Virus genome (UHGV): UHGV-0057520
Strand: one strand, 5' to 3'
DNA from: a virus
DNA: 30,871 nucleotides
A program made the translations under genes and the position numbers. The notes under the pieces were generated by a model. It was not told where the DNA came from, did not search any database, and worked only from the letters and a program-made list of their open reading frames with translations. Below, in pieces: positions 3,228 to 27,479 of the stretch. Every line of letters starts with the position of its first letter. Within the stretch, counting starts at the first letter, position 1.

Positions 3228-3389
3228 ATGACAAAACGTCGTAAGAAATACCAGGAAAAAGAAGAGATTCGACACCCTGATTCACCTGAGGGATTAGTGG
3301 TAGCCGCAGCAAATAACAGGGCGTTCGCAGAGCGCCTTGTTGGTGTTTACAGACTAGCCAAAGCAGGAGTGAAACATGGGCGTCGTTAA
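3228..3389 (+). CDS. possible small basic protein, 53 aa, between cII and the replication initiator
   Basis: ATG at 3228 with AGGAG 6 nt upstream; absent from the ORF track (under 60 aa); overlaps the initiator start by 14 nt in another frame. Confidence 0.3.
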   Translation: MTKRRKKYQEKEEIRHPDSPEGLVVAAANNRAFAERLVGVYRLAKAGVKHGRR

Positions 3390-4266
3390 GTTAGCTGATT
3401 ACAGGCATAACCCTGTACAACATCAGGAGGCATCCAGTATGGGGTATGTCTCTATACACCGCCAGTTTATGGACAGCAGGCTCTATAAGGACTCTCAGGC
3501 AGTACATCTTTGGCTTCACTTAATTCTCAAGGCTAATCACGAATCTACTGTCGTCAATACGGATATCGGGCCGATAACTGTTGATCGCGGTCAGATGATA
3601 ACTGGACGCCCGTCGCTGGTCAGAGAAACATTCATCCCCGACAACAAAGTTCGGAGCTTATTACGGACTTTTGAGTCGAAAGGGATGCTTAATATTTGCT
3701 CGATGGGGAAGAAATTTAGCCTGTTTACAATCGTTAAATATGACGATTTTCAGGCAAAAAATTGTCCAACGGTTGTCCAACGGTTGTCCAACGCAAACAC
3801 CAGTAATGGCGCGGCTCTCAGCGGAGATTGTCCAACGGTTGTCCAACAGTTGTCCATAAACAATAATATAAATAATATCTCTAATACTGACGTATTAGAG
3901 AGTGCCACAGCAGACAAAAAGTCTGACAAGAAAAAACCTTCCGTTAGCTGTCAGGATGTTGTCGATGCTTACCACGAAATCCTTCCTGAAGCGCCAAGAA
4001 TCCGCGCACTGAATGACAAGCGTAAAAACCAGATCCGAACGTTCTGGCGCAAAGCCGGAGTGATAACCCGCCAGCTTGACGGGCATGGGTTCACGATGCA
4101 GGACTGGAGAAATTATTTGAGCTACGTAGGCGAAAATTGCCGATGGATGTTCGAAGAACGCCCAAACCATCAACGCGGAACCGTCTGGCACAAAAAGGGA
4201 TTTGATTTCCTGCTTAACGACAATACCTACCTGAAAGTTCGTGAGGGTGAACACGATGACCGATAA
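3376..4266 (+). CDS. replication initiation protein (lambda O / P22 gene 18 analogue)
   Basis: 296 aa directly upstream of the helicase gene; contains the origin iteron array inside its coding sequence, as lambda O does; AGGAG ribosome-binding site before 3376. Confidence 0.7.
   Translation: MGVVKLADYRHNPVQHQEASSMGYVSIHRQFMDSRLYKDSQAVHLWLHLILKANHESTVVNTDIGPITVDRGQMITGRPSLVRETFIPDNKVRSLLRTFESKGMLNICSMGKKFSLFTIVKYDDFQAKNCPTVVQRLSNANTSNGAALSGDCPTVVQQLSINNNINNISNTDVLESATADKKSDKKKPSVSCQDVVDAYHEILPEAPRIRALNDKRKNQIRTFWRKAGVITRQLDGHGFTMQDWRNYLSYVGENCRWMFEERPNHQRGTVWHKKGFDFLLNDNTYLKVREGEHDDR
3762..3900 (+). repeat. replication origin: six direct iterons (TTGTCCAACGG-like) plus adjacent AT-rich segment
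   Basis: Copies at 3762, 3773, 3784, 3827, 3838 and 3849 (last truncated), followed by AAACAATAATATAAATAATATCTCTAATACT; translated as the repeated CPTVVQRLSN peptide. Confidence 0.7.
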
Positions 4267-6818: not shown

Positions 6819-7200
6819 GCAACAACAGCAAGCCGCAATCAACGCCATCCTCGCAACACCACTCGATAAAGACAAGCCAGTTACCATCCGCATTACTGAC
6901 TACAAGCGCAACCTTGACCAGAACGCAAAATTTCACGCGATGCTGGCGGATATCGCACGTCAGGTTCAATGGTGCGGAAAATGGTTAAAACCGGAACAAT
7001 GGAAGGTTTTGTTGATCAGCGGTCATGCAGTGGCAACAAAACAGGAAGCTGATGTTTTGCCCGGGCTTGAAGGCGAATACGTCAACATTCGCGAAAGTAG
7101 CGCGCAGATGAGTGTGAAGCGTATGGCAAGTCTGATTGAGTACACGACAGCATGGGCTATTGGTCAGGGTGTCAGATTTACCGACAGGAGGTACGAATGA
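6790..7200 (+). CDS. ninB: NinB (Orf-family recombination mediator)
   Basis: 136 aa; [32 protein letters not shown] parallels lambda NinB (SLDQN...W.GRWL) as I recall it. Confidence 0.75.
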
Positions 7201-7373
7201 GACGACAGCGACGAAGTATCACCGACATCATCTGCGAAAACTGCAAATACCTTCCAACGAAACGCACCAGAAATAAACGCAAGCCAATCCCGAAAGAATC
7301 TGACGTAAAAACCTTCAACTACACGGCTCACCTGTGGGATATCCGGTGGCTAAGACATCGTGCGAGGAAATGA
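7197..7373 (+). CDS. small basic Cys-containing protein (NinD/NinE-like)
   Basis: ATG at 7197 overlaps the ninB stop (ATGA) with GGAGG upstream; 58 aa; the ORF track extends it upstream in the same frame from 7152. Confidence 0.4.
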
Positions 7374-7735
7374 CAATGGATTATTCACAGTTAAGTGATT
7401 TTGAAATTAACGTGGCGGTATTCGAAGCCATTCATAACGGATCACCGGATTACAAAGAAGGTGAGAATGGCGATATGGTGTTTGTCTCATTTGAGGGAGA
7501 CATTGTAAACGGAGACGCAGTTGAAGTAGAGGTTGAGCGCGGATCCTTTAACCCATGCGCAAACCCAGCAGACGCATGGCCGATTATTGAAAAATACAGG
7601 ATTAGCATTATCAATCTCGATGAAGACGAGTGGGGTGCACGCGGTGTGGCCTACTGTAAATCTAAGCGAGCTATACATGAAAATCCCCTCCGCGCCGCCA
7701 TGATTGTCTTTCTCATGATGCAGAGAATCCAATAA
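7370..7735 (+). CDS. hypothetical protein (nin-region)
   Basis: ATG at 7370 overlaps the previous stop, with GAGGAA upstream; acidic, about 121 aa; ORF track start 7334. Confidence 0.45.
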
Positions 7736-7920
7736 TGCTTAGCCCATCCCAATCCCTTCAATACCAGAAAGAAAGCGTCGAGCGAGCTTTAACGTGCGCT
7801 AACTGCGGTCAGAAGCTGCATGTGCTGGAAGTTCACGTGTGTGAGCGTTGTATATATGAATGCTTAAATATGGTGGAACATAATGAGAAATATAAGCAAC
7901 ATAGACGAATTAAGAAATAA
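7735..7920 (+). CDS. small Cys-rich protein (NinF-like zinc ribbon)
   Basis: 61 aa with a CxxC...CxxC pattern; its 3' end runs into the AT-rich HNH gene. Confidence 0.4.
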   Translation: MLSPSQSLQYQKESVERALTCANCGQKLHVLEVHVCERCIYECLNMVEHNEKYKQHRRIKK

Positions 7921-8389
7921 ATTATCATATGATGATGTTTTAGGTGTACTTAGATGGAAAGTGTCTCCTTCTAATAATGTTAAGGTTGGCAGTGTTGCTG
8001 GTTACATTAGGAGTGATGGTTATAGGATGTTAACTATCGATGGTGTAATTACTTATGCTCACCACGTTATATGGATGATAAATAATGGTGAGATTCCATT
8101 AGGGTATAAAATTGATCATATAAATGGAGTAAGGTCAGATAATAGGCTATCTAATCTTCGATTGGTTACACACCAACAGAATGCACAGAACCAAAAGAGA
8201 AAAATAACCAATTCGTCAGGAGTGACTGGAGTATATTTCAATAAAGAGAGATGTAAGTGGATTGCGAATATATGCGTAGATGGGCGCACCAAATATCTTG
8301 GAATATTTGCTAGCATCATTGACGCTATTGCAGAAAGGAAGAGGGCAGAAAAAGAACTGGGTTTTCATGAAAACCATGGCAGACCATAA
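7883..8389 (+). CDS. HNH homing endonuclease with AP2-like DNA-binding domain
   Basis: 168 aa; HNH motif IDHINGVRSDNRLSNLRLVTHQQNAQN; C-terminal SGVTGVYFNKERCKWIANICVDGRTKYLGIF resembles an AP2 domain; markedly AT-rich. Confidence 0.75.
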   Translation: MRNISNIDELRNKLSYDDVLGVLRWKVSPSNNVKVGSVAGYIRSDGYRMLTIDGVITYAHHVIWMINNGEIPLGYKIDHINGVRSDNRLSNLRLVTHQQNAQNQKRKITNSSGVTGVYFNKERCKWIANICVDGRTKYLGIFASIIDAIAERKRAEKELGFHENHGRP

Positions 8390-8442
8390 CTGCGCAGAAC
8401 TGATGAGCGATCCGAATAGCTCGATGCACGAGGAAGAAGACG

Positions 8443-8655
8443 ATGAGTGATTACCTGAAATGGTATCTCTGCCACCGCTGGTTAATTAAGTTTGCTGTAA
8501 AAGACTGGATGACAGCGGATGCCAACAAGCTTAAGCAAAGAAAGGACTATTACTACGCCAGAATGAAGGAAAACTACTGCTCAATTCGCACTCGCATATT
8601 TATTAAAAAAGACCTTCAGTCAATTCTTCAATTGCGAGGGAAGGTAAATGGCTAA
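8443..8655 (+). CDS. hypothetical protein, 70 aa
   Basis: ATG with GAGGAAGAAG upstream; no family recognised. Confidence 0.4.
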   Translation: MSDYLKWYLCHRWLIKFAVKDWMTADANKLKQRKDYYYARMKENYCSIRTRIFIKKDLQSILQLRGKVNG

Positions 8656-8938
8656 CCTACGCAAAGAAGCGCGCGGCAGAGAATGCCAGGTACGTATTTA
8701 CGGCGTATGCAATGGTAATCCTGAAACTACAGTTCTGGCACATTACCGGATGGCTGGAATTTGCGGAACGGGAATGAAGCCTGACGACCTGATCGGCGCA
8801 TGGGCTTGTAGCGCGTGTCACGATGAAATCGACCGACGCACCCATAATCTCGACAACAAAGACGCCAGACTTTACCACCTCGAAGGCGTGATCAGGACGC
8901 AGGCGATACTGCTGAAGGAGGGAAAGATTAAGCCATGA
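8648..8938 (+). CDS. ybcO: YbcO-like protein (DUF1364, putative nuclease of DLP12-type nin regions)
   Basis: RECQVRIYGVCNGNPETTVLAH...CSACHDEIDRRTH closely matches my recollection of E. coli YbcO. Confidence 0.7.
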   Translation: MANLRKEARGRECQVRIYGVCNGNPETTVLAHYRMAGICGTGMKPDDLIGAWACSACHDEIDRRTHNLDNKDARLYHLEGVIRTQAILLKEGKIKP

Positions 8939-9297
8939 ACGAATATCAGTTTGTGCTTCCATACCCGCCGTCGGTGAATACCTACTGGCGAAGACGAGGA
9001 AGCCAATACTACATCAGCGATAAAGGCCAGAAATACCGAAAAGACGTTCAGCAAATCATCCGCCAACTTAAGTTAGACATTTTCACCAAATCACGACTCC
9101 GCATCAAAGTAATCGCAGACGTTCCAGACTCCCGCCGCCGCGACCTCGATAACATCCTGAAAGGTTTACTCGACTCCCTTATCCACGCCGGATTTGCGGA
9201 AGACGACGAGCAATTCGATGACATTCGCGTAATTCGTGGTGTGAAAGTACCAGGCGGACGGCTTGGAATAAAAATCACCGAACTGGAGAACGTATGA
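8935..9297 (+). CDS. rusA: RusA-family Holliday junction resolvase
   Basis: 120 aa; LPYPPSVN, DSRRRDLDNILKGLLDSL and GGRLGIKITE motifs are typical of RusA. Confidence 0.85.
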   Translation: MNEYQFVLPYPPSVNTYWRRRGSQYYISDKGQKYRKDVQQIIRQLKLDIFTKSRLRIKVIADVPDSRRRDLDNILKGLLDSLIHAGFAEDDEQFDDIRVIRGVKVPGGRLGIKITELENV

Positions 9298-9482
9298 ACG
9301 CCACAATTCAAACGATACCAGAGCTTCTTATCCAGACACGAGGCAATCAGACCGAAGTGGCGAGGATGCTTTCCTGCGCAAGAGGAACAGTGCTCAAGTA
9401 CAACCGAGACAGCAAAGGTGAGCGTCACGTAATAGTTAACGGCGTCCTGATGGTCAAACAAGGCAAGAGGGGAAGACGATGA
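9294..9482 (+). CDS. NinH-like protein
   Basis: TIPELLIQTRGNQTEVARML.C.RGTV.KY parallels lambda NinH (TIPDMLVEAYGNQTEVARRLKCSRGTVRKY). Confidence 0.65.
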   Translation: MNATIQTIPELLIQTRGNQTEVARMLSCARGTVLKYNRDSKGERHVIVNGVLMVKQGKRGRR

Positions 9483-9997
9483 GCATAAGAGAACTAAACC
9501 TCACCAAAGAGCAGCACGAGTGGCTGAATGGCTGGCTTGAACTGTGGGGCGCATGGGTTTATTCAGGTCGTCTGGAAAAGCGCATGAGCAGCGTAATAGC
9601 GAAGTTCATGGAGAGCGTAGAGCCGGGAAGAGTTATGACAAGGCCAATGTGTAATGATGATGATGGAATGTTGATTTCTCAGGTCGTCGATTCCGTCATG
9701 TGCATTGACAAGAAAGCCTTTGGAATCCTCCTCAGCTACTACGCTCATGGTTCATCTAAGCGAGCAATTGCATCCTACTATCACGCGACTGCAAAGCCAC
9801 GCAAGATGTGTGGACGTGGTGGCGAGGGATGGAGAAAGCCTTCACTGGCAACCTGTAGAAACGAAATTGACGACATCCTGAAAGCGTCGTTATTTGTTTT
9901 GTACCAACCAATGCAAAATGCTTTCAAAATGCGTAAACGTGTTGAGAAAGTTAAGCATGTTGCTGTTAAAAGCCTTGACATGCAATTAGCCATTTAG
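9479..9997 (+). CDS. Q: late-gene antiterminator Q
   Basis: 172 aa, last gene before pR'; N-terminal WLELWGAWV motif resembles DLP12-type Q (QuuD) proteins; conserved position upstream of the lysis genes. Confidence 0.75.
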   Translation: MSIRELNLTKEQHEWLNGWLELWGAWVYSGRLEKRMSSVIAKFMESVEPGRVMTRPMCNDDDGMLISQVVDSVMCIDKKAFGILLSYYAHGSSKRAIASYYHATAKPRKMCGRGGEGWRKPSLATCRNEIDDILKASLFVLYQPMQNAFKMRKRVEKVKHVAVKSLDMQLAI

Positions 9998-10060: not shown

Positions 10061-10135
10061 GGGTCAGTCGTATAAAGGTCATTACGGAAGGCTGTTAACC
10101 TTCTTATCGTGGTTCGAGTCCACGCTGTCCCGCCA
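10061..10135 (+). tRNA. tRNA-like gene, anticodon GUU (Asn), non-canonical D-arm and one acceptor-stem mismatch
   Basis: Manual fold: acceptor 6 of 7 bp, perfect anticodon stem GAAGG/CCTTC with loop CTGTTAA, T-arm CGTGG-TTCGAGT-CCACG, 3' GCCA. Confidence 0.5.
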
Positions 10136-10140
10136 AATAT

Positions 10141-10216
10141 GCTGGTTTAGCTCCAATGGTAGAGCAGTCGCCTTGTAAGCGAATGGGTAGCGGTTCAAGT
10201 CCGTTAACCAGCACCA
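10141..10216 (+). tRNA. tRNA-Thr (anticodon UGU)
   Basis: Manual fold: perfect acceptor stem GCTGGTT/AACCAGC, D-arm GCTC-CAATGGTA-GAGC, anticodon loop CTTGTAA, T-loop TTCAAGT, discriminator A and CCA; 5 nt after the first tRNA. Confidence 0.7.
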
Positions 10217-10458: not shown

Positions 10459-10782
10459 ATGAAGATGCCAGAAAAACATGACCTGTTAGCCGCCATTCTC
10501 GCGGCAAAGGAACAAGGCATCGGGGCAATCCTTGCGTTTGCAATGGCGTACCTTCGCGGCAGATATAATGGCGGTGCGTTTACAAAAACAGTAATCGACG
10601 CAACGATGTGCGCCATTATCGCCTGGTTCATTCGTGACCTTCTCGACTTCGCCGGACTAAGTAGCAATCTCGCTTATATAACAAGCGTGTTCATCGGCTA
10701 CATCGGTACTGACTCGATTGGTTCGCTTATCAAACGCTTCGCTGCTAAAAAAGCCGGAGTAGAAGATGGTGGAAATCAATAA
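10459..10782 (+). CDS. S: class I holin S (dual-start holin/antiholin)
   Basis: 107 aa, essentially identical to my recollection of lambda S, including the MKM dual-start motif. Confidence 0.9.
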
Positions 10783-17948: not shown

Positions 17949-19238
17949 ATGGCTAACCAATTAGCAAAAGACCTTGAAATCATGTTCGAAAACTACGTTG
18001 AAGGCTTTGAGGCCGCCTGCGTAGTTTCCCATAACGCTAAAAAATTCCGTCCCGGTGATACAGCAATGCAGCGAGCAGGTGATGTTCTGTATCGTCCGCA
18101 GCATTACCACATGAACATTGAGGAAGGCCTCGATCTCAGCAGCAAAACGCCTACAGCACTGGTTCAGCGCCTTGTTCCTTCTGTGTTCAAGGAGCCGAAA
18201 AACATTCTGTACACTCTGGATGCGCGTGAAATGCGTGACCCTGAGCATAAAACTGAAGCTGGTCGCGCCGCAGGTATGCGCCTTGCTGCACAGATTGACT
18301 CTGACCTGATTTCCATGGTTACGCAGCGTGCTACTAACGTGATCACAATGTCTGACTCAACCACAGGTACACAGGGCCGTGATTTGTGGAACTGTGCGGC
18401 AGGTACACAGGGCCGTGATTTGTGGAACTGTGCGGCAGGTATTGATGCCACCATGACGGCGATTGGTGTACCGCAGGGTATCAACCGTCGCTCTTTCTGG
18501 AACCCCTTCAACTACAAAGACCTTGCTGGCGAGCTTGGTCACCGTGCCTACGCTCAGGGCGCAACCCTGACAGCATACGAAAAAGCGCAGATCCCTCCGG
18601 TTGCTTCCTTTGATAGCTACAAGACCGATATTTCTGGTCGATTACCGAAAGGAAGCGCTGAATCCTTGACAGTATCAGACCAACCTGAACACAAGGTTGA
18701 AGCGAAAGATTCAAATGGTATGCCAGTTGATAACCGACAGGGGACTATTACGGTATCTGCATCTGGCTTGCAGGTTGGTGATGCGTTCACCATTGCCGGT
18801 GTGAATTCCGTACACCAGATCACAAAAGATACCACCGGGCAACCGCAGGTATTCCGTGTTCTGGCTGTTAGCGGAACTACCGTAACAATCTCTCCAAAGA
18901 TTCTCCCTGTTGAAAATACCGATGTTGCGAGTCGTCCATATGCAAACGTCGATGCCAAACCGGCAGAATCAGCAGCAATCACCATTCTCAACAAGAACGC
19001 AGCACCTGCTAACCTGTTCTGGGCTGATGGTTCTGTTGAGCTGATGTACGGCAAACTAGCGTTCCCGACTGGTCAGGGTCCACAGGTAATGACAGCAACC
19101 ACCGAGCAGGGCGCTACGCTGATCATGTCTTACGCCTTCGACCACATCAAAGGCGTAACCACTGCTCGTTTCACCACTCTGTACGGTTGCTCTGTACTTG
19201 TTCCTGAATATACGGGCATCGTTATTGCCGGGCAGTAA
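17949..19238 (+). CDS. major coat protein (P22 gp5-like)
   Basis: 429 aa; several blocks parallel P22 gp5 as recalled (FRVLAVSGTTVTISPK, RPYANV, LFWADGSVEL); contains the tandem duplication at 18365-18436. Confidence 0.85.
   Translation: MANQLAKDLEIMFENYVEGFEAACVVSHNAKKFRPGDTAMQRAGDVLYRPQHYHMNIEEGLDLSSKTPTALVQRLVPSVFKEPKNILYTLDAREMRDPEHKTEAGRAAGMRLAAQIDSDLISMVTQRATNVITMSDSTTGTQGRDLWNCAAGTQGRDLWNCAAGIDATMTAIGVPQGINRRSFWNPFNYKDLAGELGHRAYAQGATLTAYEKAQIPPVASFDSYKTDISGRLPKGSAESLTVSDQPEHKVEAKDSNGMPVDNRQGTITVSASGLQVGDAFTIAGVNSVHQITKDTTGQPQVFRVLAVSGTTVTISPKILPVENTDVASRPYANVDAKPAESAAITILNKNAAPANLFWADGSVELMYGKLAFPTGQGPQVMTATTEQGATLIMSYAFDHIKGVTTARFTTLYGCSVLVPEYTGIVIAGQ
18365..18436 (+). repeat. perfect 36-bp tandem duplication inside the coat gene, in frame
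   Basis: AGGTACACAGGGCCGTGATTTGTGGAACTGTGCGGC occurs twice back to back, encoding two copies of a 12-residue unit (cyclic form TQGRDLWNCAAG). Confidence 0.9.
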
Positions 19239-19919: not shown

Positions 19920-21338
19920 ATGCCGATTCAGCAACTTCCGCTCATGAAAGGTGTCGGCAAAGACTTCCGAAATGCCGACTATATCGACTATCTACCAGTG
20001 AATATGTTGGCTACACCCAAAGAAATCCTTAACAGCAGCGGATATCTTCGCTCATTCCCGGGCATTGCCAAACGCTCTGATGTAAACGGTGTATCGCGCG
20101 GAGTCGAGTACAACATGGCGCAGAATGCTGTTTATCGCGTGTGTGGTGGGAAGCTTTACAAAGGCGAAAGCGAAGTCGGTGACGTCGCCGGAAGTGGTCG
20201 CGTATCAATGGCGCATGGTCGGACATCTCAGGCTGTAGGTGTTAATGGTCAACTGGTCGAGTATCGCTATGATGGCACGGTTAAAACCGTCTCAAACTGG
20301 CCTACAGACAGCGGATTCACACAGTACGAGTTAGGTTCAGTTCGCGACATTACGCGCTTACGTGGGCGTTATGCGTGGTCAAAAGACGGAACTGATTCAT
20401 GGTTTATCACTGACCCTGAAGACGAATCGCACCCTGACCGATACAGTGCACAATATCGTGCCGAGTCTCAGCCTGACGGTATTATCGGCATCGGAACATG
20501 GCGAGACTTCATCGTCTGCTTTGGTTCATCGACGATTGAATATTTCTCCCTGACTGGTGCAACCACAGTTGGTGCTGCTTTGTATGTCGCACAGCCATCG
20601 CTGATGGTGCAAAAAGGCATCGCCGGGACTTACTGCAAAACGCCGTTTGCTGATTCCTATGCGTTTATCAGCAATCCGGCAACAGGTGCGCCGTCTGTGT
20701 ACATCATCGGTTCCGGGCAGGTGTCACCAATCGCCAGCGCGAGCATTGAGAAAATCCTCCGCTCCTACACTGCTGATGAACTGGCTGATGGCGTGATGGA
20801 GTCTCTGCGATTTGATGCTCATGAGTTGCTGATTATCCACCTTCCGCGTCATGTCCTCGTGTACGACGCATCTTCAAGCGCCAATGGCCCGCAATGGTGT
20901 GTGTTGAAAACTGGCTTGTATGACGATGTGTACCGCGCTATCGACTTCATTTACGAAGGCAATCAGATAACGTGCGGCGATAAGCTGGAGTCCGTGACCG
21001 GGAAATTGCAGTTCGATATCAGCAGTCAGTATGGTCTTCAACAGGAACACCTGCTGTTTACTCCGTTGTTCAAAGCGGATAACGCCAGAGTGTTCGACCT
21101 TGAGGTTGAGTCGTCAACTGGCGTTGCGCAGTATGCTGACCGCCTTTTTCTCTCTGCAACCACTGACGGCATCAATTACGGGCGTGAGCAGATGATTGAG
21201 CAGAATGAACCGTTCGTTTACGACAAACGTGTTTTGTGGAAGCGAGTAGGGCGCATCAGGAAAAATGTCGGCTTCAAATTGCGCGTTATCACGAAGTCAC
21301 CTGTCACTCTGTCTGGTGCTCAGATAAGGATTGAGTAA
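19920..21338 (+). CDS. tail accessory protein (P22 gp10-like)
   Basis: 472 aa; N-terminus [49 protein letters not shown] is nearly identical to P22 gp10 as recalled. Confidence 0.85.
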
Positions 21339-22186
21339 TGGCGGATTCGAATCTCAATACACCTGTTATTGTTCAGGCGACGCGGCTCGATACATCAATC
21401 CTTCCACGCAATATCTTCTCGCAGTCATATCTGCTGTACGTTATCGCACAGGGTACTGATGTTGGTAACGTGGCGAACAAGGCCAACGATGCCGGACAGG
21501 GCGCTTATGATGCACAGGTCAGGAACGATGAGCAGGATGTAATACTGGTCGATCACGAAATTCGACTGGCATCGGCCGAAGCGAAGATACAGGACCACGA
21601 AACAAGGATCACTAACGCAGAAGCGGCGATAGTCGGCCTTGATTCGCGATTAACGACAGCAGAAAACGATATTGATTATCTGACTGATGAAGTTGTCGCC
21701 ATACAAAACACGCTTTCAGACCATGAAACGCGCATCGATGCTCTGGAGTATGCCACCACGCGCAAGAAATCAGAGGTTGTTTACTCAGGAGTATCGATAA
21801 CCATTCCGACAGCGCCGACCAACCTTGTTAGCTTGCTGAAAACGCTCACGCCGTCATCCGGCACGTTGGCACCATTCTTCGACACCGTTAACAACAAGAT
21901 GGTTGTGTTCAACGAGAACAAAACCCTGTTCTTCAAGCTGTCGATTGTCGGGACGTGGCCCAGCGGAACCGCCAACAGGTCAATGCAGCTAACTTTTTCC
22001 GGCTCTGTTCCTGACACACTGGTAAGCAGTCGCAACTCGGCGACAACAACCGACAACATCCTGTTAGCTACGTTCTTTAGCGTTGATAAAGACGGCTTTC
22101 TTGCCACAAATGGCAGCACGTTAACCATTCAGTCGAATGGTGCGTCGTTTACTGCCACAATCATCAAAATCATTGCGGAGCAGTGA
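21338..22186 (+). CDS. tail needle protein (gp26-like N-terminus with a different C-terminal domain)
   Basis: First ~60 residues match P22 gp26 as recalled; followed by coiled-coil heptads and a ~140-residue C-terminal domain not found in P22 gp26. Confidence 0.75.
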
Positions 22187-22665
22187 TGGAAATAAAGCTC
22201 ATCGATAATCCGGTGAAGCTTGCAGAATTCCTCAACAACCCGGCAAACACAGGAAATATCGTAGACAGTGGAGATAAATACTACATCAAGCCTGATGCGG
22301 TATACCTCGGCATCTACGAAGGATTAGTGCTGGCTGGCGTTCATGAAGTGCGTAACTTCTGGCATAGCGTTGTTGAATGCCATGCGGTGTACGACCCCGG
22401 ATTCCGTGGTGAATATGCACTGCAAGGGCATCGATTATTCTGCAAATGGCTTCTCGAAAACTCACCATTCCTTAACAGCATCACCATGGTTCCTGACACC
22501 ACCAAATACGGACGGGCAATTATCCGTTTGCTTGGCGCTACCCGTGTTGGTCACCTTGATGATGCTTATACCAGCAATGGAAAGCCTGTAGGCATCACGA
22601 TTTATCAGTTACCGCGCTCAAAATACGAGGAGCTAAAGAATGTTAATTTCCCAGATTGCCAATAA
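22183..22665 (+). CDS. head/ejection accessory protein (P22 gene 14 position)
   Basis: 160 aa between the needle and the first ejection protein; assigned by synteny only. Confidence 0.5.
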
Positions 22666-26593: not shown

Positions 26594-27078
26594 CTATCTG
26601 ATATTACTGCTACTGTTGCATGTTACCGTGTTTCCAAATCCTGAATTGCAGTTTGTATATGTGTCAACGCGTGTTGGGTAAGGTTGAGTTATAACAGGCT
26701 GGCGCGCTTTTTGCTCGATCGCTTGCATTGTGTTTACAGCCTGATAATTCAATAAAGCCTGCTGGAATGCTTGGCTTTGTGCTATTTGTTGTGCTTGTTC
26801 TTGGCTTTGTAATTGAACATAAAGATTCTGAAGTTCAAGTCTTGCCTGTGTGTCACTTATCTTGCCTTCATCGACACCTTGCCCGAGCATCTTCGCAGCA
26901 AGGACATACAGCTTAGGTGTTGGTGCTGATGCCATGCGAGAGTCGTTCTTCAAGCTGGCATCAAGGCAATTAGCCATATCGCTAAGCTTTGGATAGCGTT
27001 GCTCGCAACTTGCCTGATAGTCGCTTACTTTTGCGCACCCAGCCAGCAGAAGCGGGATAATTAACAGTGATTTTTTCA
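26594..27078 (-). CDS. lipoprotein, about 161 aa mature-region Gln-rich (candidate exclusion or conversion factor)
   Basis: ORF track 26594..27130; likely start is the ATG at 27076-27078 giving MKKSLLIIPLLLAGC (signal peptide and lipobox); opposite strand to the flanking late genes; Gln-rich helical segment then Cys-containing C-terminus. Confidence 0.6.
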
Positions 27079-27113
27079 TATAATTAACTCTCCTTAGTTT
27101 TGCGCAGGATACC

Positions 27114-27479
27114 ATGAAAAAAGTTAACATTGGAAACGTACCAAAGATGCTCGTTCCGCTCTTTGAGAGCGGTACAATTGTGTTTTGTAGAGACTTTCCA
27201 GAATGGCAACGCCTGCATCAAAAACTTGGCGTTGACGTGCATGACTCGGACGCCAACGGAGCGTCTCATACAATGAGTAGCGAGAATGGTGTTTTGCATG
27301 TGATAGGCGTGTTCAATGGCAAACTATCTACTATTGCCCATGAGTGCGCTCACATGGCATTCGATATCTGCTCAAGGGTAGGTGTTGATGTTGAACCAGG
27401 AAGAGCCAACGAGACTTACTGCTACTTAATGAGCAGGCTTGTTGAGTTCTGCGAGCGACATATCAAAAAGCCGGAGTGA
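27114..27479 (+). CDS. small HExxH protein, possibly ImmA/IrrE-like (M78) zinc metallopeptidase
   Basis: 121 aa; HECAH motif followed about 15 residues later by RANETYCYLM, resembling the HExxH...E.EAN.FA signature of ImmA/IrrE domains as I recall them. Confidence 0.5.
   Translation: MKKVNIGNVPKMLVPLFESGTIVFCRDFPEWQRLHQKLGVDVHDSDANGASHTMSSENGVLHVIGVFNGKLSTIAHECAHMAFDICSRVGVDVEPGRANETYCYLMSRLVEFCERHIKKPE

Follow-up and report, generated by a model that had tools for sequence, protein, structure and literature searches.

The window (the whole stretch of DNA analysed, 30,871 nucleotides, UHGV virus genome UHGV-0057520) is the genome of a lambdoid, P22-like (Lederbergvirus-type) temperate phage of Escherichia coli. 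Its gene order is the canonical one of P22 (portal, scaffold, coat, gp4, gp10, needle, gp14, gp7, gp20, gp16 and tailspike), and the tailspike carries a P22 head-binding domain. A CI-like repressor, CII, a DnaB-like helicase, a Q antiterminator, two tRNAs, holin/lysis genes, Rha and the terminase are also encoded. Large parts of the window are 93-96% identical to vB_EcoP-720R6, CUS-3, Kapi1 and other phages, and none of the complete E. coli genomes covers more than 77% of its first 25 kb, which fits the usual mosaicism of the P22-like group. The tail needle gene lies between a PF11134 protein and a PF11039 (DUF2824) protein, followed by P22_gp7 and Inj_translocase (gp20) proteins, all recognised by Pfam. 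The features at this locus are the following:

19920..21338, plus strand: gp10 homologue, tail hub / head closure protein, the upstream neighbour (Pfam PF11134 Phage_stabilise, 986.8 bits)
21326..21340, plus strand: Shine-Dalgarno-like AAGGA (21326-21330) and TAATG junction, read directly from the sequence
21338..22186, plus strand: tail needle gene, homologous to gene 9 of Sf6 and gene 26 of P22 (open reading frame call, 282 aa plus TGA)
21338..21547, plus strand: needle residues 1-70, conserved putative N-terminal plug domain and start of the shaft (94% identical to Sf6 gp9, 80% to P22 gp26)
21548..21715, plus strand: needle residues 71-126, mosaic divergent segment of the coiled-coil shaft (34% Sf6, 39% P22)
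21728..22183, plus strand: needle residues 131-282, end of the shaft and Sf6-type C-terminal knob (3RWN, 150/152; 4K6B; PF16532)
21781..22128, minus strand: antisense open reading frame of 115 aa in the open reading frame listing, rejected as a gene
22186..22665, plus strand: gp14 homologue (DUF2824), the downstream neighbour (Pfam PF11039, 217 bits)

According to the open reading frame listing and its translation, the needle gene starts with ATG, runs through 282 codons and stops with TGA. Its ATG (21338-21340) overlaps the TAA stop of the gp10 homologue (21336-21338) by one base, forming TAATG, and its own stop overlaps the ATG of the gp14 homologue at 22186 in the same way, forming TGATG, as read directly from the sequence. 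Sf6 gene 9 has an identical one-base overlap with its upstream gene (6836..8254 and 8254..9102), and both of its neighbours are overlapped likewise. Translation of the gp10 homologue and the needle may thus be coupled. As regards the gp14 homologue, the most likely start is the ATG at 22186 and not the GTG at 22183 that was listed mechanically, by analogy with the annotation of Sf6 and of an E. coli prophage. Its product has 159 aa and extends 8 residues further at the C-terminus than its 151-aa counterparts in Sf6 and in the E. coli prophage; the reading frame as listed (22183-22665) overlaps the start of the gp7 homologue at 22640.

Three further observations concern other parts of the window. 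Adjacent tRNA-Asn (GTT) and tRNA-Thr (TGT) genes occupy 10061-10216 on the plus strand, between the Q antiterminator (9479-9997) and the holin (10459-10782). An 11-bp direct repeat occurs in two clusters on the plus strand, at 3762-3793 and 3828-3856 (TTGTCCAACGG / TTGTCCAACAG, 2.9 and 2.6 copies), both inside an open reading frame (3376-4266) which lies immediately upstream of the DnaB-like helicase gene and has no Pfam match at E <= 1e-5; these repeats resemble iterons and could indicate that a replication origin lies here, in a gene for an O-like initiator. Moreover, an open reading frame of 178 aa (26594-27130, minus strand) directly follows the gp16 homologue, where P22 has sieA. Similarity to the P22 SieA protein was not detected, no Pfam family was recognised, and the only match is PHROG 6067, of unknown function; the frame may represent another superinfection-exclusion gene or a moron.

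The needle protein was compared with gp26 of Salmonella phage P22 (233 aa, NC_002371) by BLASTP, which returned one gapless alignment over residues 1-137 (82/137 identical, 60%, E = 3e-55) and nothing significant beyond residue 137. The two proteins agree at 80% of the positions in residues 1-70 and at 39% in residues 71-126, and residues 3-64 match the N-terminal cryo-EM chain of P22 gp26 (8eap_B) with E = 1.7e-27. The first-pass annotation, which had likened the N-terminal 60 or so residues and the coiled-coil heptads to those of P22 gp26, is borne out by this identity and by a common heptad register; its estimate that the protein is about 50 residues longer than P22 gp26 agrees with the difference of 49. 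That annotation had also seen a swapped, Ser/Thr-rich C-terminal domain lacking in P22. The needle C-terminus does differ in kind from the P22 tip: homology to the latter (gp26 residues 141-233) is absent, since the BLASTP alignment ends at residue 137 and the match to PHROG 1219, the P22-type needle, extends from residue 1 to no further than residue 143 (positions 1-143 of the 233 in the profile). The composition is only weakly distinctive, with Ser and Thr making up 28% of needle residues 141-282 and 24% of the P22 tip. Furthermore, the domain is not peculiar to this gene, being the standard knob of Sf6-type needles, whose tips and those of P22 have been described as having different folds (PMC3741392). 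A full-length colinear alignment with P22 gp26, which would have spoken against a swapped domain, was looked for and is absent, and it is Sf6 gp9 that aligns colinearly instead.

The alignment with gp9 of Shigella phage Sf6 (282 aa) is gapless over 282/282 residues, with 85% identity. In a search of PDB sequences, the top match was the crystal structure of the Sf6 knob (3RWN_A), identical to needle residues 131-282 at 150/152 positions (E = 4.7e-90), and the second was the knob of the E. coli prophage HS1 (4K6B_A, residues 131-282, E = 9.5e-89); the further matches were several P22 gp26 structures, which cover only the N-terminal half of the needle. The Pfam family PF16532 (Phage_tail_NK, Sf6-type tail needle knob) was recognised over residues 109-282 with 361.9 bits against a cut-off of 27 bits (E = 5.7e-109, covering 2-175 of the 175 profile positions), and PHROG 1030 ('tail needle knob') over residues 1-282 with 440.8 bits. 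The E values for the Sf6 knob crystal chain and for PF16532 imply that the similarity is not due to chance. NCBI, UniRef and other sources already contain the exact protein under the name 'tail needle knob protein [Escherichia coli]', and it has been seen on 96 contigs. Its gene is matched in 1098 of 5426 complete E. coli genomes, mostly by partial matches, and in the closest of these it shows 97.9% DNA identity and bears the same annotation. No NCBIfam model matched the needle protein, so that the name carried by the NCBI/RefSeq records comes from no model in that library.

Taken against P22 alone, the needle C-terminus appears foreign, the alignment stopping after residue 137, and the protein might be regarded as a novel recombinant whose tip has given way to a new, uncharacterised C-terminal domain. 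This has practically no chance of being correct: over its last 156 residues the protein shares 98.7% identity with Sf6 gp9, this part falls into a curated Pfam family and has two PDB entries as matches, and the exact protein was already public. An uncharacterised domain newly replacing the needle tip is therefore ruled out by 3RWN and 4K6B, PF16532, Sf6 gp9 and the exact public match. None of the comparisons made contradicts the identification as a needle, and, judged by sequence, the protein can be assigned with a probability of about 0.97 to the known Sf6-type tail needles of P22-like (Lederbergvirus) temperate phages and prophages of Escherichia coli. The structure, distribution and phenotype of this needle class have already been published, and the feature is thus already known.

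The fold of the knob is probably that of a TNF-like jelly-roll trimer. This assignment is based on the 98.7% identity to the crystal structure and not on structure prediction; single-sequence AlphaFold2 gave low confidence for needle residues 127-282 (mean pLDDT 53.5, pTM 0.51). In PMC3741392, the Sf6-type tip is described as a TNF-like knob with three bound L-glutamates, resembling the fibre knobs of adenovirus and PRD1. The residues mutated in the knob-mutant constructs of the L-glutamate-binding work, E146, K200, S248 and D250 in Sf6 numbering (PMC3741392), are all present at the same positions in the needle. Moreover, codons 127-282 differ from those of Sf6 by 18 synonymous and 2 nonsynonymous changes, which indicates strong purifying selection on the knob in the sense frame.

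The antisense reading frame within the knob region (21781..22128) is present in the window and uninterrupted in both Sf6 and the E. coli prophage, which might suggest a real feature. Its third codon positions, however, fall on the third positions of the sense codons, so that the wobble is shared and a change that leaves the sense protein unaltered will often leave the antisense one unaltered as well; for this reason, its survival among near-identical sequences is uninformative. In Salmonella phage S9-5, which has 69% DNA identity over the stretch, the antisense frame has no start codon and is interrupted by two stops, whereas conservation of the sense protein is retained. The frame was rejected as a gene on these grounds, and the chance that it is a real feature is negligible.

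Between the two conserved ends of the protein lies the shaft. One unbroken heptad register runs through needle residues 62-140, with NLLIIILIVLIT at the a positions and QHAHALALIHL at the d positions. Hydrophobic core residues (I, L, M, V, F, A, Y) account for 73% of the a and d positions compared with 41% across residues 62-140, and the same register is found in both P22 gp26 and Sf6 gp9. Identity to Sf6 gp9 is 94% over residues 1-70, falls to 34% over residues 71-126 and rises again to 98.7% over residues 127-282. Codons 71-126 carry 37 nonsynonymous and 9 synonymous differences from Sf6, the DNA identity drops to 42-76% at gene nucleotides 181-405, and the left breakpoint of the segment is placed near codon 69. 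To judge from these comparisons, about eight heptads have been exchanged relative to Sf6, with register and length kept. The allele is shared with a prophage of E. coli VTB96933v, a chicken isolate, in which codons 1-126 are identical in DNA, and with the fragmentary record of phage ECO26.1 3-1 (94.8% DNA identity). A distant-mode blastn search of positions 21530-21740 against the phage collection returned only ECO26.1 3-1 and so pointed to no donor lineage. The divergent segment is a case of ordinary mosaic recombination within the coiled coil, and the sole local peculiarity of this needle.

Since residues 71-126 are only 34% identical to those of Sf6, the stability of the shaft could differ. 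It is nevertheless very doubtful that this segment is a distinct allele altering stability or release kinetics, and with them the timing of DNA delivery, or that the knob affects host range in nature.

Needle genes of this type also occur outside complete phages: more than 100 E. coli genomes carry a P22-like remnant of a few genes with an Sf6-type needle gene (Leavitt et al., PMC3741392). Together with the predominance of partial matches among the 1098 E. coli genomes and with a private in-frame duplication of 12 aa in the coat gene of the window, this could be taken to mean that the needle gene is non-functional, as part of the decayed remnant of a prophage. The genome, however, is intact and ordered, from the repressor through the terminase to the late operon and the tailspike, with full-length open reading frames throughout. 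The needle frame is itself full length, and the low count of nonsynonymous changes in its knob also speaks against decay. With the whole late operon intact, a remnant was judged unlikely and given very little weight.

The duplication lies in the P22-family coat gene (17949-19238, plus strand, 429 aa), as a perfect tandem duplication of 36 bp at 18364-18441 (2.2 copies, 100% match) by which GTQGRDLWNCAA occurs twice in frame. The coat gene has 1254 bp in 11 of 11 related phages versus 1290 bp in the window, and the best 10 E. coli genome matches span 185 bp of a 221-bp query, that is, they are without the duplication. It could be a private mutation affecting capsid assembly, or an assembly artefact. 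Because of this unusual duplication in the coat gene, it is not certain that the phage makes viable virions.

The first-pass annotation had further suggested that the tip may mark a different host specificity. In its stronger form, this idea makes the knob a domain which binds a secondary receptor and restricts the phage to Escherichia and Shigella. Several published observations are in its favour: PMC3741392 likens the knob fold to the fibre knobs with which adenovirus and PRD1 bind their receptors, and the needle is placed so as to contact the outer membrane first. In addition, all the knob-bearing P22-like phages known in 2013 infected Escherichia or Shigella, and the knob was found in 0 of 48 Salmonella P22-like phages (PMC3741392), which its authors read as a possible evolutionary disadvantage of the knob for Salmonella phages. 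At that date, Sf6-type knob needles had been counted in 69 of 164 P22-like phages and prophages (PMC3741392).

The genetic evidence points the other way. P22 carrying Sf6 codons 69-282, or the HS1 knob alone, gives normal titres and infectivity on Salmonella (PMC3741392, Table 3), a result which does not support the suggestion of the first-pass annotation. Constructs with point mutations in the knob (E146, K200, S248 and D250) likewise show near-normal titres and infectivity (PMC3741392); several other changes of the tip slow the release of potassium, a measure of DNA delivery (Leavitt et al. 2013, PMC3741392). The conclusion of Leavitt et al. (2013) was that the knob confers no species specificity in the laboratory (PMC3741392). 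Besides, the host-range expansion mutants of Sf6 all map to the tailspike, which is also the site of the OmpC-binding region (PMC9400499). Knob-type needles were found, moreover, in Lederbergviruses isolated on other hosts. By tblastn, Salmonella phage S9-5 encodes a full-length knob needle with 62% identity overall, a well conserved knob, an insertion of 7 residues (one heptad) in the shaft and a diverged N-terminus, and Klebsiella phage phiKp_30 encodes one with 83% identity overall; more distant full-length needle matches were obtained in Aeromonas and Shewanella phages. The needles of S9-5 and phiKp_30 weaken the correlation of 2013 between the knob and Escherichia/Shigella. A role of the knob as determinant of host specificity is thus improbable, and it has been largely refuted under laboratory conditions.

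The function of the Sf6-type needle can be pictured from what is established in related phages. In the virion of Sf6 and P22, the needle is a trimer which seals the DNA exit channel, as stated in PMC9728967 and PMC3741392, and cryo-EM of Sf6 has shown that the N-terminal tips of the trimer form a quasi-six-helix bundle plugging the channel of the hexameric tail hub (PMC9728967). Cryo-tomography of P22, as summarised in PMC9400499, shows the needle touching the cell surface; the particle changes its orientation and sheds the needle, and the ejection proteins build a tube for the passage of the DNA. By homology with the solved structures, three chains of the present needle would assemble into one long fibre, of which residues 1 to about 60 would insert into the channel of the gp10 tail hub, seal it and retain the packaged DNA; this plug role is attributed to the N-terminal domain following PMC9728967 and PMC3741392. 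Residues 62 to about 140 would form a trimeric coiled-coil shaft of 11 heptads projecting past the tailspikes, and residues from about 140 to 282 would fold as the trimeric TNF-like knob, with three L-glutamate molecules at the subunit interfaces. On infection, the tip would be in a position to touch the outer membrane, and the subsequent loss of the needle would allow the ejection proteins (homologues of gp7, gp20 and gp16, encoded just downstream) and the DNA to leave the virion. From the published genetics, the tip would set the rate of DNA delivery and not the host range.

The needle gene chiefly serves correct annotation, as it flags a P22-like E. coli phage with a needle of the Sf6 class. 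The distribution of knob needles, which is wider than the one restricted to Escherichia and Shigella reported in 2013, is a small update on a known class.

Among the known systems, Sf6 gp9 (3RWN) shares with the present needle its length of 282 aa, the knob residues and the register of the heptads, and its gene occupies the same place, overlapping each neighbour by one base; it differs in shaft residues 71-126 (34% identical) and by two conservative substitutions in the knob, V154I and T275I. P22 gp26 (PDB 2POH, 3C9I) is homologous in the plug domain and the shaft, with 60% identity over residues 1-137 and the same heptad register, and its gene likewise lies between genes 10 and 14, but its tip (residues 141-233) is unrelated in sequence to the needle C-terminus. 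The needle of E. coli prophage HS1 (4K6B) has a near-identical knob, as compared over residues 131-282, but its total length is greater, at 317 aa, and its knob is placed at codons 174-317 (PMC3741392), which implies a longer coiled-coil shaft. Finally, the needle of the E. coli VTB96933v prophage (WP_063268665.1, annotated 'tail needle knob protein'), with 99% protein identity, the same shaft allele and the same neighbours, differs by four amino acids, all of them in the knob.
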